A stretch of 61,717 nucleotides of DNA from positions 1 to 61,717 of the IMG/VR virus record IMGVR_UViG_3300037634_001516. One strand, 5' to 3'. Source of the DNA: a virus. Its lineage: Duplodnaviria > Caudoviricetes. The stretch's first letter is position 1, and every line of letters begins with the position of its first letter. Both the position numbers and the translations under genes were made by a program. This document shows positions 824 through 61,717 of the stretch, piece by piece. The notes beneath the pieces are model-generated. The model searched no databases and was not told where the DNA came from. It saw only the letters and a list, made by a program, of their open reading frames with translations.

Positions 824-1096
824 ATGATTAAATTAAGTGAAGAGTACCGCAGGTTGGCAATTCGTGCATTAGAATGGAAAAGTGAAGGACTAGGAAGCTC
901 AGAAATCCGCTACTGGATGATTGATGGAGCTATCACTGTTCTTCTAGATTCTGAACACCGACTTAATCATCGTGTCGACTTAAAGGTGTTACAACGTGTA
1001 CGAAAGATAGTGAACAGATCTAACTCTAGTATCCAAGATATGGAGGAGTTACAGTCTGCCACAGCTATGAAGAAGCCATTTCCTCTGCGATTTTAA
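824..1096 (+). CDS. Early hypothetical protein
   Basis: 90-aa ORF, TAAGGAG RBS. Confidence 0.75.
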   Translation: MIKLSEEYRRLAIRALEWKSEGLGSSEIRYWMIDGAITVLLDSEHRLNHRVDLKVLQRVRKIVNRSNSSIQDMEELQSATAMKKPFPLRF

Positions 1097-1156
1097 GTCG
1101 AAACGCCTACGGGCGTCTAAGGGAATTGATCTACCCTTACTGATGAGACTGATCAA
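1096..1156 (+). ncRNA. Type II hammerhead ribozyme (copy 1)
   Basis: AGTC-GAAA-CGCC(TACG)GGCG-TC^-TAAGGG(AATTGATCTA)CCCTTA-CTGATGA-GACT; full CUGAUGA/GAAA/GUC core; loop I TTGATC pairs with downstream GATCAA. Confidence 0.92.
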
Positions 1157-1178
1157 AAACTAATTAAGGAATACCATT

Positions 1179-1652
1179 ATGAATAAACTAGCAATCACGA
1201 AAGAAATCTTTGTTCTTATCGACGCACTGACCACTGGAAGCGCTATGAGCATGCCGAAAGCAGATCAGTACGCATTTGAACTAGAAGTTAACCTCGATCT
1301 TGCAATGTCAGGGAAAAGAGATTGGACACCGTTGATCAACGAAGCTTACGATATAGGTGATGCTATTCAGGTCTGGGAAGATCAAAAAGCACACAGAGCT
1401 TTCTTGGCAGAGCAGTTCAAGGATATACAAGCTACGGCTTTGTCTAACCTACTTAGTTACAAAACTTCTGTTTATTGGAAGAGTGACTATCTGCTTAACG
1501 TAGCTGCTGAAATCAGCTTAGGTGATCTAGAGTCTGCCCAAGATATGTTAGATTGTGCTGAGGGCAAAGAGATGTTTGGAGATATGCCTTACGAGGTGTT
1601 CCGCATACTCGGCAAGCACACTGGGGTTACTGAACTTAGTCATGGGGAATAA
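1179..1652 (+). CDS. Early hypothetical protein, paralog of 87..368
   Basis: TAAGGA RBS; C-terminal half aligns with 87..368. Confidence 0.8.
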   Translation: MNKLAITKEIFVLIDALTTGSAMSMPKADQYAFELEVNLDLAMSGKRDWTPLINEAYDIGDAIQVWEDQKAHRAFLAEQFKDIQATALSNLLSYKTSVYWKSDYLLNVAAEISLGDLESAQDMLDCAEGKEMFGDMPYEVFRILGKHTGVTELSHGE

Positions 1653-1653
1653 C

Positions 1654-1842
1654 ATGAAAGAGTTTGGATTTAAATTAACTAAGAATGAAGACGAAACGTG
1701 TGACATGGAGTTTGTATCTAGTGATGGCAATGGAATTGGCTATCGTGAAGGTACTAACAGAAACGTCACTCGTGAAGTCTTGGAGGAGATCTTGTTTAGC
1801 TATGAGCAATCTGGCTATAAGATTACTTACTGTCGTCTATAA
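1654..1842 (+). CDS. Hypothetical protein
   Basis: Start reassigned to ATG 1654 (MKEFGF), just after the previous stop, GGGGA RBS. Confidence 0.6.
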   Translation: MKEFGFKLTKNEDETCDMEFVSSDGNGIGYREGTNRNVTREVLEEILFSYEQSGYKITYCRL

Positions 1843-1855
1843 AAGGAGTACCGTT

Positions 1856-2002
1856 ATGTTAACTATACTATTGTTTTTAATAGCAATAACAGTTATCTTC
1901 GGAGTTGTGGGTGGCATCTTTTCAGCTATTTTTACGTGTTCGTTTCGTATGGCTTTGGTCGTACTTTGCATTTTCACTCTCTTAGCTTTAAGCATGTCTT
2001 AG
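1856..2002 (+). CDS. Small membrane protein
   Basis: AAGGAG RBS; almost entirely hydrophobic 48 aa (MLTILLFLIAITVIFG...). Confidence 0.6.
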   Translation: MLTILLFLIAITVIFGVVGGIFSAIFTCSFRMALVVLCIFTLLALSMS

Positions 2003-2008
2003 TTTTTT

Positions 2009-2027
2009 AAACACTGTATTATGAATA
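2009..2027 (+). promoter_or_regulatory. Putative phage RNAP promoter, copy 1
   Basis: AAACACTGTATTATGAATA, intergenic, matches the repeated motif. Confidence 0.7.
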
Positions 2028-2060
2028 GCAAAACTCAATTTTTAATTAAGGAATACTATT

Positions 2061-2285
2061 ATGAAGTATACTAAAACTGTAGATGTATGGGAACTTAACG
2101 ACCAAGAACGTAGCAAGTTGCAAGTTGGTCAATGGGTGTCAGCAGGTAAGAACGGCAATAAAGGCGTTTGGTGCGGAATGACCTCCAATGGTATAGCGCT
2201 TGTGACTTGGTTAGGGAATATCTCTGGCCGTGCTCACTCGCACAGTACTACTAAGCGTCTTATTGCAAATGCTAAATCTAACTAA
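2061..2285 (+). CDS. Hypothetical protein
   Basis: TAAGGA RBS, 74 aa. Confidence 0.7.
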   Translation: MKYTKTVDVWELNDQERSKLQVGQWVSAGKNGNKGVWCGMTSNGIALVTWLGNISGRAHSHSTTKRLIANAKSN

Positions 2286-2297
2286 GAGGAAAATACT

Positions 2298-2546
2298 ATG
2301 GATTATGTAGTTGATTACTGTGGCTTTGAGTTAACAGTGCAAGTGTACAATGTTGAAGAACCTGTGGAAGCCTACGTAACTGGGCCTTGGGAGGATTGTT
2401 ATCCTGCTGAAGATGGGTATTTCGACTTTGTCGTTATCGATGCTGAGTACAAAGAACATATGGCAGAATTTGCAGACATTGCAACTTCGTTTTGCCAACA
2501 TGAGTTGTACGAAGCAATATATCAAGAAGTGTTTTTAACTAAGTAA
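2298..2546 (+). CDS. Acidic hypothetical protein
   Basis: GAGGA RBS; strongly D/E-rich 82 aa. Confidence 0.7.
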   Translation: MDYVVDYCGFELTVQVYNVEEPVEAYVTGPWEDCYPAEDGYFDFVVIDAEYKEHMAEFADIATSFCQHELYEAIYQEVFLTK

Positions 2547-2721
2547 ATGAGGATAGGTGTAGATATGGGACACAGAGTTACACAAAGAATATTGGTATGT
2601 GATGTTTGCAACACGATACCAGAGGACGGACAGTACCTTTGGGAAATGTGTGGCGACTACTGGTGCGAGGATTGTTGCGAGCACGAAAAGAACCTTGAAC
2701 TTGAAAATGAGGAATAAAATT

Positions 2722-3111
2722 ATGACTAAGCTAATTATCAGTACTGACCGTCCAGATCTTTCCCAGCTAGAGCTTCATAAGCGTCGGAAAGACTTTGAGT
2801 TCTACCTAGAGCGCACAGGTCTGAAGAATGATGTTTGCGAAGGAGTATGGGAAGGTGGTCGTGAGCAATCTTATATGATAACTCTGCGAGATGATAAGTA
2901 CTATCGTCCTCTGTTAGAGTTAGCATTTGATCGCTTTGACCAAGACGCTGTTCTCAAAGTCGGTGCGTATAAGGGTGCTACCTTTATCCACCGAGACTAC
3001 AGTGAACTATCGGTAGATGGGAACTTCATCAAGGCGACAGAGAAACCTCCAGTTGGAGATTACACTCAACGTTACTCTGATGGAGCTTTCTTTTATATCA
3101 GCCAACACTAG
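2722..3111 (+). CDS. S-adenosylmethionine lyase (T3 gp0.3-like)
   Basis: Start at 2722 with GAGGA RBS; IISTDR / GVW...EQS / LAFDRFDQDAVL match T3 SAMase VSAFR / GCY...EKT / LACNEWEQDCVL. Confidence 0.72.
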   Translation: MTKLIISTDRPDLSQLELHKRRKDFEFYLERTGLKNDVCEGVWEGGREQSYMITLRDDKYYRPLLELAFDRFDQDAVLKVGAYKGATFIHRDYSELSVDGNFIKATEKPPVGDYTQRYSDGAFFYISQH

Positions 3112-3170
3112 TCGAAACGCCTACGGGCGTCAGTGGGAATTAGTCTACCCACTCTGATGAGACTGACTGA
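3110..3170 (+). ncRNA. Type II hammerhead ribozyme (copy 2)
   Basis: AGTC-GAAA-CGCC(TACG)GGCG-TC^-AGTGGG(AATTAGTCTA)CCCACT-CTGATGA-GACT; loop TTAGTC pairs with GACTGA; compensatory changes relative to copy 1. Confidence 0.92.
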
Positions 3171-3188
3171 ACTAATAGGAATCGTACT

Positions 3189-3605
3189 ATGAAAATTCAA
3201 ACAACATATGAAGAATGCTTGGAAGTATCAAAGGAGTTCAATGAACATAATGATTGTGCAGTAATAGCCGTAGCTCTGGCAGGAGGTATTCCTTACGAAA
3301 CCTCTCACAGCTTGCTACGAGAATTGGGTGGAAGGGAAAACCGGAAGCCTGCAAGATACTCTTCTGTAAGTGCAACTCTGATGCTGATTGGAGCAACTGA
3401 GAAGTTCTTAGATATGGAGGAGATGAAGAAGAACAATGGTGGGAGGGGTCTGACTCCAAACAATATTGTTCCTTTGTTAGACGCTACCAAGACTTACGTA
3501 GCTTACGTAAAAGGTCACGTTTTTGCTGTCTGTAAAGGTAAGCTAGAAGACTGGTCTGTTGGTCGGAAGTTTAAAGTCTTACAAGTTGTAGAAGTTTCCC
3601 GTTAA
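3189..3605 (+). CDS. Hypothetical protein with putative Cys/His peptidase-like motifs, paralog A
   Basis: NDCAVIAVA...GHVFAV...GKLEDWS, shared with 3621..4082. Confidence 0.7.
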   Translation: MKIQTTYEECLEVSKEFNEHNDCAVIAVALAGGIPYETSHSLLRELGGRENRKPARYSSVSATLMLIGATEKFLDMEEMKKNNGGRGLTPNNIVPLLDATKTYVAYVKGHVFAVCKGKLEDWSVGRKFKVLQVVEVSR

Positions 3606-3620: not shown

Positions 3621-4082
3621 ATGCAAGTAAAGAAATGGAGAAGTGTGTATGACCGTTTCAAAGATCTTCCTAAAGCTAGAACTACTTTTGTCAAATGTGA
3701 ATATATAGCTAATGCTATGAATGAAACTAATGACTGTACCGTAAAGGCAGTAGCGATAGCTGGTAAGATCCCCTATGAGACTGCGCATGAACTTATGCAA
3801 CTGTCAGGTAGGAAGCCAAGAGAAGGAACATTCCCAGGAATAGTCAGTTTGGCATTCCGAAGGATTGGAGCTAAGGAAAAGAGAGTCTGCACTATGGCTC
3901 TTCAGAAAAAGAACAACGGAGTAGGTTTAACTGCCAATAACATTGTTCGATTACTGAATAAGCAGCGCTCTTACATAGCGTATACCATTGACCACGTACT
4001 CACTATCCGTAACGGAAAAGTTGAAGATTGGTCTGCAGGCAGGCGTCATAAGATACTGTCAGTGCATGAAATATCACGTTAA
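3621..4082 (+). CDS. Hypothetical protein with putative Cys/His peptidase-like motifs, paralog B
   Basis: NDCTVKAVA...DHVLTI...GKVEDWS. Confidence 0.7.
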   Translation: MQVKKWRSVYDRFKDLPKARTTFVKCEYIANAMNETNDCTVKAVAIAGKIPYETAHELMQLSGRKPREGTFPGIVSLAFRRIGAKEKRVCTMALQKKNNGVGLTANNIVRLLNKQRSYIAYTIDHVLTIRNGKVEDWSAGRRHKILSVHEISR

Positions 4083-4306: not shown

Positions 4307-6937
4307 ATGTCCGAATATTTAAACTTGCTACAATTCGAACTCAACGAGCGTATGAAGTCTGAAGGAAACATTAAGTTTATCCGCAATGAGGAAAGACTTA
4401 CTGAGAATGATGACTACTCTGAGACAGTAACTGCACGTGACTTCGCTAGCAAGGCTATCGGAGGATTCGTCAAGACTTTCGAAGAATACGTAGAAGAACA
4501 GGAAACTGTTTCTCGCAAGGGTTTGTTGATTAAGCACAACATCCATACTATGATCGATCCACGCTCCTTAGCTAAGATCATTATAAAGTGTTTGTTGTCT
4601 AACGTAATGGTACCAGATGGTCGTCGCAAGACAGCTACTGATGTACTGTTCAAAATAGGAGATGAACTGGAATACACGCTAAAGCAGATCGAACTGGACA
4701 TGTACCACGCGAAAGATGTACGCAAGGTAATGGACATGCTGAGACGCCAAGGACGTGTTGGGGACAAGGAAGAGATACGTAATATGATGTTAGCTCTGTC
4801 AGAGTCTGAGGGTCTGGAATTCAAAGATTTTGATTCCGACATTAAGGCTAAGATGGGTTTAGCTCTTGTGCAGTTGTTCTACAAATCCCCTGTTAGTTAC
4901 AAGGGCGAACAGCTACGCTTTAGTGATATCTTTCGTGAATACGACGAAAAGACTCACACAAGCAAGCACAAGCAACGCTTTATAGACTTGACAGTCTTAG
5001 GTCGTGAGTGGTTGTCAGAGAATGAGACGTTTCTAGCGGAGAATTCTTTGACATTCCTGCCTATGGTCGTTCCACCGATGCCTTGGAGAAGTATTACCAA
5101 GGGCGGTTACTGGGACGAAGCTTTGAACTCTAAGTATCACATTCTGAAAGGCGTGTCCCGTAAGAAAGTTAAAGAACTGTACTATGACCACCCTGAAGGA
5201 TTCGACGTTCTTATTGAAGTACTTAATGAGCTACAATCAGTTCCGTTTACTGTAAACGGTGACATATTGGAAGCAGTTAAGTACGTTAATGATAACGAGA
5301 TCTCTATTGGTGGAGGTGGTGTGCCATCCTACATGGGTGGTTGGGAAGCTCTGTTAGGAGATGAGGCAGAAACACTGTTTAACTTGCGCAAGATGCTTGA
5401 GCGTGATGAAGACGGTCGACTGACTGATAGTTCTAAAGAGCAGTTGGAGGAGTTCGCAAGAGGTGTCATTGAAGGCGGTAAAGACCTTGATGACAAAGAA
5501 CTTTGGAAGGAGTGGAGAAAGGTCTGTAAGAAGTCCCAAGACCACGCCCGAGCAGAGAAATCCAAGACTCTGTTGATGGACAATGTGATTCGAGATGCCC
5601 AGATGTTTGTTGATGCTGGCGCTCCTATCTACTTTGTCTACAACGCAGATTATCGTGGACGCATCTACCCTCTATCTACCCAGTTCTCACCCCAAGGTAC
5701 TGACGTATCTAAAGGACTGTTGAACTTTGCTAACCCAGTTTGGGTGGACACAGATGAAGCTGTGGATCAAATTGCTTACGTAATCGCCAACAACTATGGT
5801 GAAGACAAGTTAAGCATTACTGATCGTATCCAGTGGACTCATGACCATACTGCTGAGATCTTGGCTTGCGCAACTGACTTTAAGTCTACCGACTTCTGGT
5901 TGAAAGCGGATAAGCCATTTATGTTCCTAAACGGTTGTTTGGAATGGGCAAAGGTTGTTGGTGCTAGTATGTCTGAAGAAGGTGGTTTTTGGAGTTCTAT
6001 TCCAATTGCTTTCGACGGTTCATGTAACGGCATACAACACTACAGTGCTATGTTCAAAGACCCTGAAGGTGCGGTAGCTGTTAACCTAGTTGATAGCGAA
6101 ATCCCATCTGATGTGTACAAAGAAGTAGGGCTGCGAGCCAAAGCTATGGCTGAACGCTCAAGTGCTGGTGTGAACAAGTTGATTCAGAAGTACTCTGAAG
6201 AAACTGACGGTGCAATATTCGGACGTAAAGTTGCCAAGCGTAGCACAATGTGCTTACCTTACGGTGTATCTAAGCGTTCTTCTAATGCATATGTTTACGA
6301 AACTGTTGATGAAGTTCTTAAGGAATCTTCGATCACAGCTAAGGAAGCAAAGTCTGTTCGTACTCGTATCGGTAGTCTGATCTGGGATGCGATTGGTGAA
6401 GTTGTGGGTGCACCTGTAGTTGGTAAGGAATATCTTCAGAACATAGCTGCAGAGCTAGCTGAAGAGAACCTGCCCGTCTACTGGACTACTCCTACAGGTT
6501 TCCCTGTCAAACAAGAGATCAAGAAGAGTGTACCAAAGATGATCGAAGTCAAGATAGACGGAGTGCGTGTGCAACGAACTGTACCTCGTTACGTTCAAAC
6601 TCTTGATGGTGGAGATCAGTCTAACGCAGTCGCTCCTAACTTTGTCCATTCTTTCGACTCAGCACACTTACAGCTTACTGTAAAGGCTGCTGCAGCTGAA
6701 GGTATGGAGAACTTCTTAGTTGTTCACGACAGCTTTGCTACTGATGCTAATTCAGCAGCACGCTTCAATGAGATCATCCGCGAAGAATTCGTAGGAATCT
6801 ACAATGAGCGTGACTACCTGAACGAGTTTCATGACAAAGTTGAAGAGCAATTAGGTCGTGCTTCCGAAGTTGGACGTGTGCACCAAGGGGACTTCGATGT
6901 TAACGAAGTCTTGAAAGCAACTTACTTTTTCAGCTAA
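4307..6937 (+). CDS. T7-type single-subunit DNA-directed RNA polymerase (RNAP1)
   Basis: DYRGRIY; motif A PIAFDGSCNGIQH; motif B RKVAKRSTMCLPYG; APNFVHSFD; motif C VHDSF; C-terminal YFFS. Confidence 0.97.
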   Translation: MSEYLNLLQFELNERMKSEGNIKFIRNEERLTENDDYSETVTARDFASKAIGGFVKTFEEYVEEQETVSRKGLLIKHNIHTMIDPRSLAKIIIKCLLSNVMVPDGRRKTATDVLFKIGDELEYTLKQIELDMYHAKDVRKVMDMLRRQGRVGDKEEIRNMMLALSESEGLEFKDFDSDIKAKMGLALVQLFYKSPVSYKGEQLRFSDIFREYDEKTHTSKHKQRFIDLTVLGREWLSENETFLAENSLTFLPMVVPPMPWRSITKGGYWDEALNSKYHILKGVSRKKVKELYYDHPEGFDVLIEVLNELQSVPFTVNGDILEAVKYVNDNEISIGGGGVPSYMGGWEALLGDEAETLFNLRKMLERDEDGRLTDSSKEQLEEFARGVIEGGKDLDDKELWKEWRKVCKKSQDHARAEKSKTLLMDNVIRDAQMFVDAGAPIYFVYNADYRGRIYPLSTQFSPQGTDVSKGLLNFANPVWVDTDEAVDQIAYVIANNYGEDKLSITDRIQWTHDHTAEILACATDFKSTDFWLKADKPFMFLNGCLEWAKVVGASMSEEGGFWSSIPIAFDGSCNGIQHYSAMFKDPEGAVAVNLVDSEIPSDVYKEVGLRAKAMAERSSAGVNKLIQKYSEETDGAIFGRKVAKRSTMCLPYGVSKRSSNAYVYETVDEVLKESSITAKEAKSVRTRIGSLIWDAIGEVVGAPVVGKEYLQNIAAELAEENLPVYWTTPTGFPVKQEIKKSVPKMIEVKIDGVRVQRTVPRYVQTLDGGDQSNAVAPNFVHSFDSAHLQLTVKAAAAEGMENFLVVHDSFATDANSAARFNEIIREEFVGIYNERDYLNEFHDKVEEQLGRASEVGRVHQGDFDVNEVLKATYFFS

Positions 6938-8027: not shown

Positions 8028-8050
8028 TCAAAACACTGTATTAAGATACA
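8028..8050 (+). promoter_or_regulatory. Putative phage RNAP promoter, copy 2
   Basis: TCAAAACACTGTATTAAGATACA. Confidence 0.7.
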
Positions 8051-8226
8051 TTGCGATTCAGGTCTTGCGGCAGCTGCTTTTTTAAATACTTTTAAAGTAT
8101 TCTTTTAAGTACTCTCTGCGTATATGTATATATCTTTATCTTCTCTGATATTTATTAACAGAGTTAATACGTTAACATGTATGTCAAAGTAGTGTCACAT
8201 ATACCTGACGTTGTCTTTGTTAAGAA

Positions 8227-8250
8227 TCAAAACACTGTATTATGATACAA
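8227..8250 (+). promoter_or_regulatory. Putative phage RNAP promoter, copy 3
   Basis: TCAAAACACTGTATTATGATACAA upstream of primase-helicase. Confidence 0.8.
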
Positions 8251-8369
8251 CCCGAATCACACAAGGAGGCATACTATGAAACTATTATCTTACACCCTGA
8301 CCGCTGCAGTACTGACAGGTTTGTTCCTTGTGCAATACTCTTTACTGACTGTTATTTTAGGAGGCTGAT

Positions 8370-10400: not shown

Positions 10401-10424
10401 TCAAAACACTGTATTATGATACAA
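10401..10424 (+). promoter_or_regulatory. Putative phage RNAP promoter, copy 4
   Basis: TCAAAACACTGTATTATGATACAA upstream of clpX. Confidence 0.8.
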
Positions 10425-10452
10425 TAGGAATTACAATTAAGGAGAATACACT

Positions 10453-14989: not shown

Positions 14990-15013
14990 TCAAAACCCTG
15001 TATTATGATATAA
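14990..15013 (+). promoter_or_regulatory. Putative phage RNAP promoter, copy 5
   Basis: TCAAAACCCTGTATTATGATATAA upstream of DNA polymerase. Confidence 0.8.
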
Positions 15014-15039
15014 CTTAACCACAATTCACGGAGGTCATT

Positions 15040-21727: not shown

Positions 21728-21751
21728 TCAAAACCCTGTATTATGATACAA
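21728..21751 (+). promoter_or_regulatory. Putative phage RNAP promoter, copy 6
   Basis: TCAAAACCCTGTATTATGATACAA; following ACGAATCACA nearly identical to copy 3. Confidence 0.8.
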
Positions 21752-21857
21752 CACGAATCACATTAGTTTGCCATTAGCTTTATTTGCGGCGATTAACGCC
21801 GTAAAAACAATATGTGTAAACTAACATAATCAAAACCACCTAGAAGGAGAACTTATC

Positions 21858-26688: not shown

Positions 26689-27666
26689 ATGAATAAGAAG
26701 CAACGTAAAATGTTAGACAAAAGCATTGAGTTCGCAAAGCGTATCGGATTAGCACCAGCTAACAAGATGACACCGACTCAGTTGGCTAAAGAAGCCAAGA
26801 CTATCTCTGGTGTAAAGACTACAGTATTGACCGAAAAGGATATGGCCAAACTTGGGATGGGGCTGCTCTTAGGAGTATCTCAAGGTTCTGATGAAGAAGC
26901 TAAGTTCATCGTTTGTGAGTACAACGGCACTGGTTGCGCTAAGTCTCCACCGACAGTACTGATCGGCAAGGGATTAACTTTCGATATGGGCGGCAACTCT
27001 ATCAAGCCAGCAACCAACCTTCACCAAATGAAGTTTGATATGTTAGGCGGTGGAGCAGTATTGGCCACAGTACAAGCAGCAGCAGAGATGAAGCTGCCTC
27101 TGAACATTGTTGGTATTGTTCCTGCATCAGAGAACCTGATTAACGGTAAGGCTACAAAACCTGGAGATGTTCACACGAGTATGTCAGGTCTTACTGTAGA
27201 CGTTCGAAATACTGATGCAGAGGGTCGTTTGATTCTAGCTGATGCTTTGACTTACGCTCAAGATATCTACCCTGACGCGAAGTCTATTACGACTGTCGCT
27301 ACTCTTACTGGTGCCCAGCTTTATGCTACAGGCACAACACACTCTGCTCTGCTCGGCAACGACCAAGACTTGATCGACGAGATCAAAGCTGCAGGGGATG
27401 AGTCAGGAGATCTTGCATGGCAGTTGCCATTCGTACAAGAACACTCTGACGAGATGAAAGGCCAAGAAGGTGTTAGTGATCTGAAGAATGTAGAGACTAA
27501 CCGTGGTCCAGGAACTATCACAGCGTTTGCTTTCTTAGAAGCATTTGTTGATGAGGATGTCCCATTCGCCCACTTAGACGTTGCTTCAACAGCTTCCAAA
27601 GGTGATGAAGTGACAGGTCGTCCAATATCACTACTGGTTCAGTTCCTACTTAATCGTACTTTATAG
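26689..27666 (+). CDS. M17 leucyl aminopeptidase (catalytic domain only)
   Basis: IGKGLTFDMGG; MKFDMLGG; NTDAEGRLILAD; ATLTGA; HLDVA. Confidence 0.93.
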   Translation: MNKKQRKMLDKSIEFAKRIGLAPANKMTPTQLAKEAKTISGVKTTVLTEKDMAKLGMGLLLGVSQGSDEEAKFIVCEYNGTGCAKSPPTVLIGKGLTFDMGGNSIKPATNLHQMKFDMLGGGAVLATVQAAAEMKLPLNIVGIVPASENLINGKATKPGDVHTSMSGLTVDVRNTDAEGRLILADALTYAQDIYPDAKSITTVATLTGAQLYATGTTHSALLGNDQDLIDEIKAAGDESGDLAWQLPFVQEHSDEMKGQEGVSDLKNVETNRGPGTITAFAFLEAFVDEDVPFAHLDVASTASKGDEVTGRPISLLVQFLLNRTL

Positions 27667-27989: not shown

Positions 27990-28013
27990 TTAAAACACTG
28001 TATTATGAAATAA
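27990..28013 (+). promoter_or_regulatory. Putative phage RNAP promoter, copy 7
   Basis: TTAAAACACTGTATTATGAAATAA. Confidence 0.75.
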
Positions 28014-28033
28014 ACACTAAAGAGGTACATTCA

Positions 28034-38338: not shown

Positions 38339-38362
38339 TCAAAACACTGTATTATGAATAAA
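38339..38362 (+). promoter_or_regulatory. Putative phage RNAP promoter, copy 8
   Basis: TCAAAACACTGTATTATGAATAAA. Confidence 0.8.
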
Positions 38363-38635
38363 CACAGACTCACACATCCCGAGTTTGGGTTCTTATTCTA
38401 ACTTCGGTTAAGCCCAACGGGACAGCCGAAGATAAAGGTGTACAGCTGTTAGACTGTTCCAAGCAGATAAGACTAATAATACTGTAGACTGGGTTAAACT
38501 CCCAGATGCACTGCCACTGGGGTAGCAAGTAAAAGTACATTTATTCGGTTTAGAGGTAATCCGAATACGTAGCAAAACCTCTTACCTAACACAAAAATAT
38601 AGCTAATAATAGCTGTATTAATTAAAAATAAGACA
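38363..38635 (+). ncRNA. Candidate structured non-coding RNA or leader
   Basis: ORF-free ~270 nt directly behind the promoter motif; several stems and an H-type pseudoknot. Confidence 0.45.
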
Positions 38636-57721: not shown

Positions 57722-60700
57722 ATGATGGCTGATTACACTAGTACAGTAGAGCTCAAAGCAAATACAGGCAAGCTCGAACAGAGTATGAAGAGAGTCAACG
57801 GTAATCTAGACAAGATGAATACCAGACTCAGAAGTTCTTCGGGACAGTTCAAGAAGACAACGACTTCTGCTGGAAGAGATCTCAAGAAGTTAGACACTAA
57901 GCTGTCTACAACTACAAAGTTGGTAAGCGGACTAGGAGCAGCATTTGCTGCCTTGGCTGCAGGAACTTACGGATCAGATTTGCTGAAACAGTTCTCTACT
58001 CTAGAGGATGGCCTGAAACAGATTGCCACACTAGGTGTGAAAGATCTTAAAAAGGTAGAGAAATCTGTTTTCAGAACAGCCAAGTTATACGGTTCGAATA
58101 TACAAGAAACCACTAAAGGCTATTACGACATTATATCTGCAGGAGCTTCTAGTGGAACTGCTGCGGTGGAACAACTGAATGCTGCTGCTAAGTTAGCTGC
58201 GGCTGGTAATACCGAACTTGCTGGCGCTATTGACGTAGTTACTTCTGGACTGAATGTCTGGAAAGACTCCGGAATGAAAGCGTCGGAAGTGACAGATAAG
58301 TTGTTCTTGGCTGTTAAGTTTGGTAAGACAACAGTAGAGGAGCTGGGCAGAACATTCGGCATGGTAGCTCCCATCGTCAAGACCGCTGGCGGTTCTATGG
58401 ACGATTACGCTGCATCTATGGCAGTGATCACAGCAGGTGGTATCGCGACCAACCAAGCCACAACAGGCTTAAGCGCAATCATGAGCAACTTGGTCAAGGT
58501 TACTCCAGCAGCTCGCAAAGAAGCAAAACGGTTAGGACTAGAGTGGGGAACTACTGCAATTCAAGCCGATGGATTCGTAGGTGTATTAGAAAATCTACAA
58601 CTAGCAATAGAAAGAGATACTTCAGCAGGAACGATGGCCGACAAGCTCGGCAAACTGTTCGATTCTAAAGAAGCTATCGGTTCTATCTCAGTTCTTCTAG
58701 ACAACCTAGATAAGCTAAAGAAAGTGCAAGGTGATATGGCAACATCCGCAGGAACTGTGGACGAAGCTTGGAAGAAAGTTGCAGACAATATGTCTATTCT
58801 GTTTAGTCGGGTCAGGAACTCAATAATAGAAGTTGAGATGACTATCACCCAGTTGATTATCAAGCCTTTGAAAGATATGGCGAAAAGCGTACTAGAGAAC
58901 GGTGAAGGTTGGAGAACAATCAAGAAGGTTATGGTAGCGGCCACTGCTGCAGCTACAGGATTCCTTGCAGTACTGTCTGTTAAAGCTATAAGAGCTATCA
59001 CTATAGCGATGGCTAACTTGACACGAGTTATGATAACTAACCCCTTGTTTATGGGATTGGTAGGAGCAGGCTACGGCTTAACAGTTCTCCTAGACCAGTT
59101 CGAGGCATTTGAAGGGAGATTCATGACATCTGTCGGCTTCATGTCGTTAGCATTCGAGAACTTTATCTACAAAATACTGAACTGGGCAGGGATCAAGCTG
59201 GGAAGTGTTTTTGACCCAGTATCAGCTGCTTGGGATGCTTCTTTAGCGTCTGCCTTAGCGATAGCTGAAGCTACAAGAGATGCCATAAAAGAACCTATCA
59301 AAAAAGCTCATGAATATTTAGAGGGACTCGATTGGTTAACACCTTACGAGAAAATATCTACTGCGGCTGCTAAAGTATGGGATGTGGCCAAACAAGGGTA
59401 TGATGCAATAGCTAGTGGTGTGGAAACCGCTTATACCTACTTAGAGGGACTCGATTGGTTAACACCTTACGAGAAAATATCTGCTGCAGCTGCTAAAGTG
59501 TGGGATGTGGCCAAACAAGGATACGACGCAATAGCTGGTGGTGTGGAAAAAGCTTATGCCTATTTAGGTACTCTTGATTGGTTAACACCTTACGAGAAAA
59601 TATCTGCTGCGGCTGATAAAGCATTTGATGTCGTCAAAGATGGGTATGACCTTATCGCTGCTCCTGTGGAGAAAGCGTACAACAAGCTTGTTTCACTTGA
59701 TTGGTCTGCCTTATGGACAAGTTTCATTACAGAGTCTGGTGCTGTTTACGATTTTGCTTTAGATTTCTACGACTTAATCGCTGGCCCTGTTGATAAGGCC
59801 GTCAATTATATTTCTAATATAAATTGGTCTGACATGTGGGGTGATCTAAGCTCTGGAATAGACTCTGTCAAGAAATGGTTCAATGATATGTACATATATC
59901 TGGTAGGCAACTCTGTTGTTCCAGATATGGTGAACGAGATTATGACGTGGTTTGGAACGATGGCTAATGCCGTGGTTGCTACTACGATCAGTATTTATAC
60001 TTCGATCACTGACTGGTTCACAAAGATGTACAACAAGGTTACAGGTTCTACTAAAGATACTGTAACTGAGATCAACGCTTCTTTGAGCGATGTGCACGGT
60101 TTCGACACTGATGACACTGACAGTATGTTTGATCCTGCGAAACTAGATGAAATGCTAAAATCTTGGGATGATCTGAGCATTAAGATGAAACTAGTAGTCG
60201 GTATTGCCGGAACTCTAGGGGCAGCATTTGTTACTGCTTTTGCTATTGCTAAGGTTACTCAGTTCAAGAACTCTATCAATGGCATGTTTGACACCTTCAG
60301 GAACTCTACAAAAACTATTTCAGGTAAGCAGGGCTTACTGAATAAGATAATGTACGGAACTGAAGGCGGTGATCGCAGAGCTGGTGGAGAAGCAGCCAAG
60401 CTGGATAAGAAAGCAAAGCTTCTTGATCAAGGTGTGAAGTATCGAGCTGCTAAGACAGCAGCTGAAAGAAAGGCTGCACTACAAGGTTACAGCTTATTCG
60501 AGCGGAGTCAGATCAAAAAGAACGCTACTCTACGTACTGCGATTATGCAACACCAAGCCGCAAACGCTAGATCAGAGATGGTCAAGTTACAAGGCAATAT
60601 GCAAGGTCGTGGAGCATTCTCTCGAGCTTTATTCGGCAGAGGTTCTAAAGACACCTTATCTGCTAAAGTAGCAGGATTTGCAGGACAAGCTAGGAAGTCT

Positions 60701-61717
60701 GTTGTGGGAGTATCCACAGTAATCGCTAAAGGTGCCAAAGGTGCTATGCATAAAGCTACTTTCGGGTTCACAGGTGCTACTGGTATAAAAGCCAATATTG
60801 CTGCTGTCGCAGCCTCGGTGAAGCTCACTGCAACATCTATGGCGACTGGTCTTGGCAGAGGTGCTATGGCCCTTGCAACTTTCGGCAAGAAAGGTATTGG
60901 TGGTCTTAGAGCTAAGCTAGCGAGTTTCGCTGCCTCTGTTAGGGCTACTTCTGCAAGCTTGAAGCTTAACTTGCAAGCTAGATCTCTCTCCAATTTAATG
61001 TTGTTCGGTAAAACAGGCAAAGCTGGAGCTGTGTTAGGATCTTGGACTGCATTTAAAACTAAGCTTACAGGCAAGAACGCTAAACTGTTCGGTGCTGGTG
61101 CTTTAGGTTTGGCAGGACTTGCTGTTGCAGGTACAACTGCTGCAGGTGGATTAGACGGAGTTAAAGAGAAGTGGGACAAGTTCACACAAGATCTTTCTTT
61201 CGATAAGATAAAAGAAACAGCTACTAACGCTTTTGCAGAGTACGGCACTGATGGTCTCATGATGTGGGCCATGTTCGGTGCTCCTGGATCTGGTCTGATA
61301 GTATCTGGAATAGCTGCTGCATTCACAGGTCTCAAAGCTGCACTAATGTTAACTTTGGCCCCAGCACTTGGGTGGCTTGCTTCAACTGGTGCAGCAATTT
61401 TGGCTGGCCCAGTAGGTTGGATCGGTATCGCATTAGCAGGTATTGGATTAGCTATTTACACACTGTGGCCTAAGATCAAACCTGTATTCGACGAGATGTG
61501 GGAGAGTTTGAAGACTTGGTTCTCTGAGATAAAATGGATAGAGGGGTTCACAAAGATAGGAGATATCCTACTTTGGCCTGAGATTTCAGGTGCATTCGAC
61601 ACTATGTGGACAGGCATATCGACATTCTTTACAGAAATAGATTGGTCTGGCATATGGGATGGATTGTGGGCTAGCGCTACTGATATAACTAAAAAGCTAG
61701 CTGACAAACTAAACCCA
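57722..61717 (+). CDS. Tail tape measure protein (truncated by the window end)
   Basis: AAGGAG RBS; TP901-type core YDIISAG...AAKLA.AG...DKLF.AVKFGKTTVEEL; Trp-periodic repeats; frame appears open to the end. Confidence 0.92.
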   Translation, partial: MMADYTSTVELKANTGKLEQSMKRVNGNLDKMNTRLRSSSGQFKKTTTSAGRDLKKLDTKLSTTTKLVSGLGAAFAALAAGTYGSDLLKQFSTLEDGLKQIATLGVKDLKKVEKSVFRTAKLYGSNIQETTKGYYDIISAGASSGTAAVEQLNAAAKLAAAGNTELAGAIDVVTSGLNVWKDSGMKASEVTDKLFLAVKFGKTTVEELGRTFGMVAPIVKTAGGSMDDYAASMAVITAGGIATNQATTGLSAIMSNLVKVTPAARKEAKRLGLEWGTTAIQADGFVGVLENLQLAIERDTSAGTMADKLGKLFDSKEAIGSISVLLDNLDKLKKVQGDMATSAGTVDEAWKKVADNMSILFSRVRNSIIEVEMTITQLIIKPLKDMAKSVLENGEGWRTIKKVMVAATAAATGFLAVLSVKAIRAITIAMANLTRVMITNPLFMGLVGAGYGLTVLLDQFEAFEGRFMTSVGFMSLAFENFIYKILNWAGIKLGSVFDPVSAAWDASLASALAIAEATRDAIKEPIKKAHEYLEGLDWLTPYEKISTAAAKVWDVAKQGYDAIASGVETAYTYLEGLDWLTPYEKISAAAAKVWDVAKQGYDAIAGGVEKAYAYLGTLDWLTPYEKISAAADKAFDVVKDGYDLIAAPVEKAYNKLVSLDWSALWTSFITESGAVYDFALDFYDLIAGPVDKAVNYISNINWSDMWGDLSSGIDSVKKWFNDMYIYLVGNSVVPDMVNEIMTWFGTMANAVVATTISIYTSITDWFTKMYNKVTGSTKDTVTEINASLSDVHGFDTDDTDSMFDPAKLDEMLKSWDDLSIKMKLVVGIAGTLGAAFVTAFAIAKVTQFKNSINGMFDTFRNSTKTISGKQGLLNKIMYGTEGGDRRAGGEAAKLDKKAKLLDQGVKYRAAKTAAERKAALQGYSLFERSQIKKNATLRTAIMQHQAANARSEMVKLQGNMQGRGAFSRALFGRGSKDTLSAKVAGFAGQARKSVVGVSTVIAKGAKGAMHKATFGFTGATGIKANIAAVAASVKLTATSMATGLGRGAMALATFGKKGIGGLRAKLASFAASVRATSASLKLNLQARSLSNLMLFGKTGKAGAVLGSWTAFKTKLTGKNAKLFGAGALGLAGLAVAGTTAAGGLDGVKEKWDKFTQDLSFDKIKETATNAFAEYGTDGLMMWAMFGAPGSGLIVSGIAAAFTGLKAALMLTLAPALGWLASTGAAILAGPVGWIGIALAGIGLAIYTLWPKIKPVFDEMWESLKTWFSEIKWIEGFTKIGDILLWPEISGAFDTMWTGISTFFTEIDWSGIWDGLWASATDITKKLADKLNP
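59315..59683 (+). repeat. Three tandem 123-bp (41-aa) repeats inside the TMP gene
   Basis: Units start at 59315, 59438 and 59561 (YL..LDWLTPYEKIS.AA.K..DV.K.GYD.IA..VE.AY). Confidence 0.9.

Follow-up and report, generated by a model that had tools for sequence, protein, structure and literature searches.

Two Type II Hammerhead Ribozyme Motifs in a Tightly Packed Region Upstream of the T7-Like RNA Polymerase Gene of a Phage Genome

Results

We used computational analysis to characterize two type II hammerhead ribozymes, HH1 and HH2, which lie between small genes near the left end of a virus genome of the class Caudoviricetes, upstream of a gene for a T7-like single-subunit RNA polymerase; the second of them directly follows a gene of the S-adenosylmethionine (SAM) lyase type. 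The genome (IMG/VR record IMGVR_UViG_3300037634_001516, referred to here in its entirety as the window) comprises 61,717 bases and is rated 100% complete; its ends are linear, no terminal repeats were found, and its plus strand carries all of the long open reading frames (ORFs). Both ribozymes were read directly from the sequence, and their parts are as follows.

1096..1156, plus strand: HH1, type II hammerhead
HH1: stem II, 1096-1099/1147-1150; GAAA, 1100-1103; stem III, 1103-1107/1112-1116, loop UACG
HH1: C17, 1117; stem I, 1118-1123/1134-1139; loop I, 1124-1133; CUGAUGA, 1140-1146
HH1: pseudoknot, 1126-1131 with tail 1151-1156
3110..3170, plus strand: HH2, type II hammerhead
HH2: stem II, 3110-3113/3161-3164; GAAA, 3114-3117; stem III, 3117-3121/3126-3130
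HH2: C17, 3131; stem I, 3132-3137/3148-3153; loop I, 3138-3147; CUGAUGA, 3154-3160
HH2: pseudoknot, 3140-3145 with tail 3165-3170, one G-U pair

The elements follow one another in the same order in both copies, namely, the 5′ strand of stem II (AGUC), GAAA, a stem III hairpin ending in U, C17, stem I, CUGAUGA, GACU, and a 6-nucleotide (nt) tail that is complementary to the middle of loop I and so can form a pseudoknot with it. The helices are also of the same size, with 6, 4, and 5 bp in stems I, II, and III, respectively, a UACG loop on stem III, and a loop I of 10 nt. GUC triplets occupy 1115-1117 in HH1 and 3129-3131 in HH2, and cleavage is predicted between 1117 and 1118 and between 3131 and 3132. 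A preliminary description, made from the letters of this DNA alone, had already placed a complete hammerhead core at each site with cleavage after 1117 and 3131; both our direct reading and a descriptor scan bear this out.

The features that define the hammerhead class were taken as in Perreault et al. (2011). Both copies contain the core residues C3 U4 G5 A6 N7 G8 A9 and G12 A13 A14, an N-U-H triplet with the A15.1-U16.1 pair (A1103-U1116 and A3117-U3130), and sound pairs next to the core in stem II (G1147-C1099 and G3161-C3113) and in stem I (U1118-A1139 in HH1 and A3132-U3153 in HH2). Three helices, backed by covariation, surround the core. The type II topology is apparent from the order of elements in both copies and from the minimum-free-energy structure of HH1, which forms a three-way junction when folded alone. 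As for the pseudoknot, in which at least 4 bp must join loop I to the nucleotides that immediately follow stem II, 6 bp are available in HH1, 6 in HH2, and 5 in a third copy found in a relative (L047; see below). Every class-defining feature that can be checked in silico is present, and only the operational score cut-off of Rfam is missed.

The descriptor scan covered hammerheads of types I, II, and III on both strands, with at least 4, 3, and 4 bp in stems I, II, and III, and from the whole genome it returned HH1 and HH2 only. First-order Markov random windows (n = 100) gave a mean of 0.02 matches, with any match at all in 2 of the 100. Likewise, the 18-nt string running from GAAA through stem III to GUC occurs twice in the genome, against 0.01 expected occurrences. 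The Rfam model for this class (RF02276, Hammerhead_II) aligned with both copies over model positions 1-66 of 66, scoring 28.8 bits for HH1 (E value of 1.3e-4 on 86 nt) and 28.1 bits for HH2 (E value of 3.5e-5 for the genome). Of the Rfam check that the preliminary description had proposed, the full-length alignment held for both ribozymes, whereas the scores fell short of the gathering score of 37 bits (as did that of the L047 copy, at 28.5 bits), a cut-off that is an operational database threshold rather than a property of the ribozyme class. A default Rfam scan missed both ribozymes because their scores fall under this cut-off; two tRNAs are the sole output of the genome at gathering scores. 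The RF02276 alignment contains six non-standard pairs, located where the model stretches stem I into loop I of these copies, and part of the shortfall probably stems from this overextension and from the inability of covariance models to score the pseudoknot. A covariance model built from the three related copies (HH1, HH2, and that of L047) and run with filters off yielded 95 and 90.5 bits at the two sites, and the next best match in the window reached 11.5 bits; since nothing else exceeds this value, the genome holds exactly two copies.

These figures bear directly on the possibility that the motifs are inactive relics or chance look-alikes, their hairpins serving as a terminator, as a protein-binding site, or in some other role. 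Scores under the Rfam cut-off would suit this explanation, as would the sub-threshold RF02276 matches (E ≤ 10) that turned up in 11 of 14 control genomes. However, a perfect core occurs twice where the random expectation is 0.02, stem I and the pseudoknot covary (see below), no U-tract follows stem III, and a terminator scan returned nothing at HH1 or HH2. We regard a relic or a chance resemblance as extremely improbable.

A few weaker candidates arose in the course of the Rfam searches. A match to Ocean-VII on the minus strand at 1115-1152 (19.5 bits versus a cut-off of 53.5) lies on the reverse complement of the HH1 stem I and CUGAUGA part and was judged a look-alike; a weak overlapping match to the DUF2815 RNA (19.2 bits versus 41.2) was rejected; and a weak RF02276 match at 26829-26905 (14.5 bits) was supported by neither the descriptor scan nor the three-copy model. 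No further ribozyme class was found by Rfam at E ≤ 0.5 across the whole window.

Relatives of the phage were found by searching metagenome contigs with its RNA polymerase, the protein identity being 97% for L047 and 82, 81, 79, and 51% for L048, L049, L050, and L051, respectively. L047 is approximately 97% identical to the window at the DNA level and is collinear with it except for three cassette indels. It carries a hammerhead at the position of HH2, directly past the same stop codon. Over 473 ungapped bases there are 14 mismatches between the two, only 2 of which fall in the 427 bases before the cleavage site, while 12 are crowded into 3133-3175. The 46-nt stretch that holds these 12 is joint first in divergence among 10,070 windows over 10,250 aligned bases (mean of 1.37 differences; 99th percentile of 8). 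Pairing is retained in the L047 ribozyme in spite of this local divergence, and all 10 of the differences that fall within it are transitions.

The preliminary description had noted that stem I and the pseudoknot between loop I and the 3′ tail covary between HH1 and HH2. The sequences are as it gave them (stem I, UAAGGG/CCCUUA versus AGUGGG/CCCACU; pseudoknot, UUGAUC/GAUCAA versus UUAGUC/GACUGA, the latter with one G-U pair), and the covarying third copy in L047 strengthens the observation. When the three copies are aligned, pairing holds in 62 of 63 cells, and compensatory changes occur in 7 of the 21 pairs, 4 of them in stem I and 3 in the pseudoknot. Put differently, compensation affects 4/6 stem I pairs, and 3/6 pseudoknot pairs have changed on both sides with 17/18 cells still paired. 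As a control, sliding the partners by 1 to 3 columns left 30 to 38% of cells paired and 0 or 1 compensatory pair. Stems II and III are invariant across the three copies and are therefore uninformative with respect to covariation.

Hammerheads of this kind are not confined to the window and its closest relative. Exact matches to the 18-nt stem III string were found in 35 viral contigs, as well as in the genomes of 29 bacterial species spread over many phyla, and in the viral contigs the string is part of type I or type II hammerheads situated just ahead of a start codon. The three-copy model gave 37 matches in 54 other loci, including three type II copies in each of L010, L021, and L029 and two in each of L003 and L027. 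A wider alignment, comprising 32 distinct rows and fitted to the model, has 95.7% of its cells paired and compensatory changes in 13 of 15 pairs. To describe gene context, we added HH1 and HH2 to 30 hammerheads from other phage contigs, giving a non-redundant set of 32, and called ORFs crudely. The stop codon of an upstream ORF lies within −9 to +3 nt of the 5′ end (first helix) of the ribozyme in 27 of the 32, and a candidate start codon occurs no more than 40 nt past the last helix in 29; among the rest, two loci stop too soon for a start to be judged and one has its start 137 nt away. The genes that flank the other type II hammerheads are small and for the most part of unknown nature, and among 20 of the 46 flanking ORFs listed, a Pfam scan revealed no recurrent function, with a family assigned to only 3, all of them phage proteins of unknown function. 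Six pairs of other contigs show the hammerhead as an island of 80 to 94% identity over 50 to 90 nt between flanks that cannot be aligned.

Several of these observations raise the possibility that the ribozymes are chiefly module boundaries, either because their invariant part acts as a homology patch for the swapping of downstream cassettes or because the ribozyme itself travels with the cassettes, cleavage being of little benefit in either case. The comparison with L047 is suggestive here: near identity up to the cleavage site gives way to the divergent 46 nt, and these are followed by a 424-bp gene indel that starts at 3178, just past the tail of HH2. The islands of similarity in the six contig pairs, the wide distribution of the stem III string, and the lack of recurrent identity among flanking genes can all be read in the same way. 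However, the two other L047 indels nearby have their boundaries at ribosome-binding-site (RBS) microhomology and not at a ribozyme, and islands of similarity are to be expected of any constrained RNA. Moreover, the perfect core and the compensatory changes argue for selection on the fold and not merely on a DNA patch, and differences that consist of transitions only are the route expected for stepwise compensation. We therefore consider it unlikely that the ribozymes are boundaries above all else. The divergence pattern fits a recombination joint, and it fits plain functional constraint too. A combined role can also be envisaged, in which the RNA is cut and the invariant 5′ half additionally provides a DNA homology patch, so that each cassette would bring its own stem I, pseudoknot, RBS, and gene (and, relatedly, in which identical open stems may let a 2-kb RNA circularize). 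If true, such a dual role would account for the exact coincidence of the cleavage site with the onset of divergence and of gene gain or loss, but we think it quite unlikely.

The genes and other features that surround the two ribozymes are the following.

824..1096, plus strand: cistron upstream of HH1; 90 amino acids, no family match; the last base of its TAA stop codon (1094-1096) is the first base of the ribozyme
1179..1652, plus strand: first cistron past HH1; 157 amino acids, unknown function; RBS AAGGA at 1166-1170; paralogue of the ORF at 87-368
2006..2030, plus strand: variant copy of a promoter-like 25-nt motif, between the two ribozymes
2722..3111, plus strand: SAM-lyase gene (Pfam PF23780; E value of 1.5e-11; 44.8 bits versus a cut-off of 28), the last cistron before HH2
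3189..3605, plus strand: first cistron past HH2; 138 amino acids, phrog_3754, unknown function; RBS AGGA at 3177-3180; not in L047
3621..4082, plus strand: phrog_3754, paralogue of the gene at 3189..3605; in L047, the first gene past the ribozyme
4307..6937, plus strand: T7-like single-subunit RNA polymerase gene (Pfam RNA_pol match, E value of 4e-86), on the predicted 3′ cleavage product of HH2

In agreement with the preliminary description, each ribozyme sits at the stop codon of the upstream gene (that of the SAM-lyase gene, a TAG at 3109-3111, overlaps HH2 just as the TAA overlaps HH1) and ends approximately 10 nt ahead of the next RBS. Comparison with L047 suggests that the SAM-lyase gene starts at the ATG at 2722. 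The region is otherwise tightly packed; among the ORFs listed in the first 4.3 kb, the only gaps of more than 50 nt are those that hold HH1 (82 nt), HH2 (77 nt), and the promoter-like motif (58 nt), and there is no room in this region for hairpins of the RNase III type. In both paralogue pairs (87-368 with 1179-1652, and 3189-3605 with 3621-4082), one member is the first gene past a hammerhead. A homologue search with the two genes past HH2 found nothing but unnamed phage proteins. When viral contigs were searched with the flanking proteins, the ORF at 3189-3605 matched one locus at 28% identity (L038) and the ORF at 1179-1652 matched none; an RNA polymerase search of the viral contigs gave eight loci at 27 to 33% identity, none with a hammerhead, and a degenerate pattern for this type of stem I and loop had 0 matches there.

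The 25-nt motif is present in eight copies (2006-2030, 8028-8052, 8227-8251, 10401-10425, 14990-15014, 21728-21752, 27990-28014, and 38339-38363), all of them on the plus strand and in gaps ahead of genes. The motif is also conserved in L047. Seven copies lie past the RNA polymerase gene and one, the variant, before it. The motif is probably the promoter of the phage's own polymerase. Since the variant lies between the two ribozymes, HH2 may also sit on transcripts that start there.

Other genes of the phage include those for a primase-helicase, a family A DNA polymerase, a ribonucleotide reductase, a large terminase, and a portal protein. Its RNA polymerase is approximately 30% identical to those of cultured Autographiviridae and is encoded at a similar distance from the left end. 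No cultured phage matched at the DNA level when 900-3400 was searched, and a DNA search with a 76-nt ribozyme query returned nothing beyond seeds of 18 to 28 nt in four records.

Discussion

On the strength of the motif, its statistical significance, its covariation, and its gene context, HH1 and HH2 are genuine type II hammerheads, and we consider it rather probable that they split a multigene transcript for intercistronic processing. That both ribozymes are active seems very probable from the sequence; what we infer is cleavage in vivo, the carrying transcript, and any influence on RNA stability. The ribozymes would be transcribed within a plus-strand multigene RNA heading toward the phage RNA polymerase gene, each of them becoming complete only after its 3′ tail had been transcribed. 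The pseudoknot between loop I and the tail would then dock stems I and II in parallel, and the core would cut after C1117 or C3131. Three RNAs would result, namely, one reaching up to 1117, a 2,014-nt piece (1118-3131) with six ORFs, the last of them being the SAM-lyase cistron, and a piece from 3132 onwards that bears the two paralogous small genes and the RNA polymerase gene. Upstream products would retain an intact stop codon 21 nt from the 3′ end, beyond which would come the UACG hairpin of stem III and a terminal 2′,3′-cyclic phosphate, while downstream products would carry a 5′-OH directly on the stem I hairpin and pseudoknot, with a free RBS some 10 nt further on. The likely purpose of this arrangement would be processing without host enzymes, such that each segment acquires its own defined ends and hence its own stability or translation. 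When the predicted products were folded, the stem III hairpin closed the 5′ product, stem I opened the 3′ product, and the RBSs were mostly unpaired.

Several points weigh against this interpretation. No promoter was identified upstream, a sigma-70 scan giving 13 sites versus 13.8 in shuffled sequence. All three copies score under the Rfam gathering score, and in a longer context the minimum-free-energy fold of HH1 lacks stem II, albeit with a folding program that is unable to model the pseudoknot. RBS accessibility in the folds was equal before and after cleavage, and therefore no obvious translational switch is apparent. No ribozyme was found in L048 (82%) and L049 (81%), in which the upstream genes are tightly packed and the sequence ahead of the RNA polymerase gene spans 2.6 and 1.9 kb, nor in L050 (79%) and L051 (51%), where the upstream stretches amount to just 43 and 424 nt; two distant whole records likewise had no match to the three-copy model. 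As none was found in the stretches recovered from these relatives, the elements are accessory and dispensable for such phages. Self-cleavage of HH1 and HH2 is itself a prediction. The preliminary description had supposed that the 5′-OH ends may stabilize downstream cistrons, an idea that depends on the host, since such an end may be destabilizing where RNase J is present.

This last consideration leads to a different outcome for active ribozymes, whereby the net effect would be to lower or uncouple downstream expression, either because the 5′-OH serves as an entry site for RNase J or because the cut ends the upstream mRNA. The same anatomy would apply, the host could be of either kind, and relatives without ribozymes are compatible with a tuning role; in Bacillus, products of the glmS ribozyme that bear a 5′-OH are degraded by RNase J1. 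Against this, the phage needs its RNA polymerase gene, which is located on the piece downstream of HH2, and a 5′ hairpin right at a new end, such as that seen in the folds, is usually protective. Lowered expression is in our judgment improbable.

Intercistronic processing invites comparison with the early mRNAs of T7 and T3, which RNase III cuts at sites between the cistrons that precede and surround the RNA polymerase gene, leaving the upstream mRNA with a 3′-terminal hairpin. HH1 and HH2 are likewise intercistronic and near the RNA polymerase gene, and HH2 directly follows the SAM-lyase cistron; gene 0.3 of T3 encodes a SAM-degrading enzyme, and an anti-restriction gene of this type is what T3 expresses first. 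It is in this sense, from the position of the region upstream of the RNA polymerase gene and the presence of the SAM-lyase gene, that the label “early” appears reasonable. The systems differ in that the RNA here would cut itself, with no host enzyme, and in that the predicted ends are a 2′,3′-cyclic phosphate and a 5′-OH instead of a 3′-OH and a 5′-phosphate. Self-processing of a polycistronic transcript, RNase III-like as in T7, fits the local anatomy, although the parallel would be a functional one only. RiboJ-type synthetic insulators offer another point of reference; in these, a hammerhead and a hairpin ahead of the RBS provide the downstream cistron with a defined 5′-OH end and a 5′ hairpin, but they are engineered, derived from satellite RNA, and of a different topology.

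Much of this architecture has been described before. In the portions of their paper on which we draw, Perreault et al. (2011; PMC3088659) report natural type II hammerheads with a pseudoknot between loop I and the 3′ tail, in clusters that flank prophage gene blocks, and propose that these process long transcripts into gene- or operon-length mRNAs. The same portions describe, for a metagenomic type II hammerhead, mutation and compensatory rescue showing that the pseudoknot is needed for fast cleavage. As depicted there (PMC3088659; RF02276), type II hammerheads resemble the present copies in their core, in having stems I and III closed and stem II open, and in a 6-bp stem I with a loop of approximately 10 nt, as well as in a pseudoknot of at least 4 bp right past stem II and in their occurrence in intergenic phage DNA as several copies that flank short gene blocks (PMC3088659). 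The copies in the window depart from that account in that stem II has 4 bp and directly adjoins the pseudoknot, stem III is minimal with a UACG loop, the scores are 28 to 29 bits, and the setting is not a prophage but a lytic-type phage with a T7-like polymerase, where the copies lie ahead of the RNA polymerase gene (PMC3088659). Since the architecture, the pseudoknot, and the processing idea were all published in 2011, HH1 and HH2 constitute a new instance of an arrangement that had already been described.

Perreault et al. also raised the possibility of circular or spliced products, a possibility that merits consideration here. The excised 2,014-nt RNA would bear a 5′-OH and a 2′,3′-cyclic phosphate and might be ligated into a circular or spliced RNA, either through a hammerhead re-formed from the 5′ half of HH2 and the 3′ half of HH1 or by a host ligase of the RtcB type. 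Stem II (AGUC/GACU), the only helix that would be shared between the halves, is identical in HH1 and HH2, while stem I and the pseudoknot, which differ, are each contained within one half; similarly, the type I copies within each of the contigs L018, L032, and L037 share the open stem I, and their closed stems differ. However, stem II is just 4 bp long and its identity may merely reflect duplication, the open stems differ among the three type II copies in each of L021 and L029, and the sections of the 2011 paper cited here state that circular or spliced products of clustered hammerheads were sought and none was detected (PMC3088659). We view circularization as very unlikely.

Cleavage in a cell has been documented for other hammerheads beside phage-like genes. 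A 2021 study, in the part available to us, reports that three type II hammerheads of Desulfovibrio vulgaris in a prophage context cleave in vivo (cyPhyRNA-seq; PMC8782182). Like HH1 and HH2, these are type II hammerheads beside phage-like genes, two of them close together, and their cleavage was shown both in vivo and in vitro; unlike HH1 and HH2, they reside in a bacterial chromosome in a prophage-like context, and their sequences are unrelated to ours beyond the family consensus, as far as that portion of the study goes (PMC8782182). Another precedent, described in the cited portions of Perreault et al. (PMC3088659), is HHphage of the haloviruses HF1 and HF2, for which a mapped transcript 5′ end falls within 3 nt of the cleavage site. 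It differs from the present case, by the same account, in belonging to an archaeal virus, in being a hammerhead with a variant core, and in being present only once, where a transcript begins (PMC3088659). In the section used here, a 2019 review describes the biological role of hammerheads in phage DNA as still open (PMC6765202). Our own literature search, which was limited in coverage, turned up no publication dealing with early-region hammerheads of T7-like phages and none on a tested phage function.

The locus leaves unanswered the question of what hundreds of hammerheads in phage DNA are for, yet it presents a clean case for testing. The two ribozymes and the promoter-like motif stand out in an otherwise tightly packed region, and one ribozyme separates a cistron of an anti-restriction type, the SAM-lyase, from those leading to a T7-like RNA polymerase gene. 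Natural controls are also at hand in the form of a 97% relative with a compensated variant and of 81 to 82% relatives without a ribozyme in the upstream regions recovered. The ribozymes are real, and their proposed function is plausible. More generally, it follows from these copies that the default Rfam cut-off misses well-formed phage hammerheads.

Some further observations concern the ends of the record and its relatives. The window opens inside an ORF, the TGA of which (88-90, within 1-90) overlaps an ATG at 87, and therefore the start of the transcription unit is out of view. At the other end, the last ORF (57722-61717; >1332 amino acids) extends past the 3′ end and shares its frame with position 1; the record may have been circularly permuted, or a single large gene may have been cut to give its two ends. 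Inside this last ORF, 59301-59705 comprises three tandem copies with a period of 123 nt and 74 to 85% identity. With regard to L047, a cysteine-rich ORF of 56 amino acids at 2547-2717 of the window is absent from it, the corresponding 151-bp indel (2554-2704) being flanked by a 9-nt direct repeat in RBS regions; L047 in turn has an extra gene of approximately 420 bp (positions 50-470 of that contig), just past the promoter-like motif and a shared RBS and start. Finally, the polymerase gene of the 79% relative contains a group I intron (L050, 1977-2209; Rfam RF00028, 82 bits, E value of 1e-19), and the gene in the window is without one.

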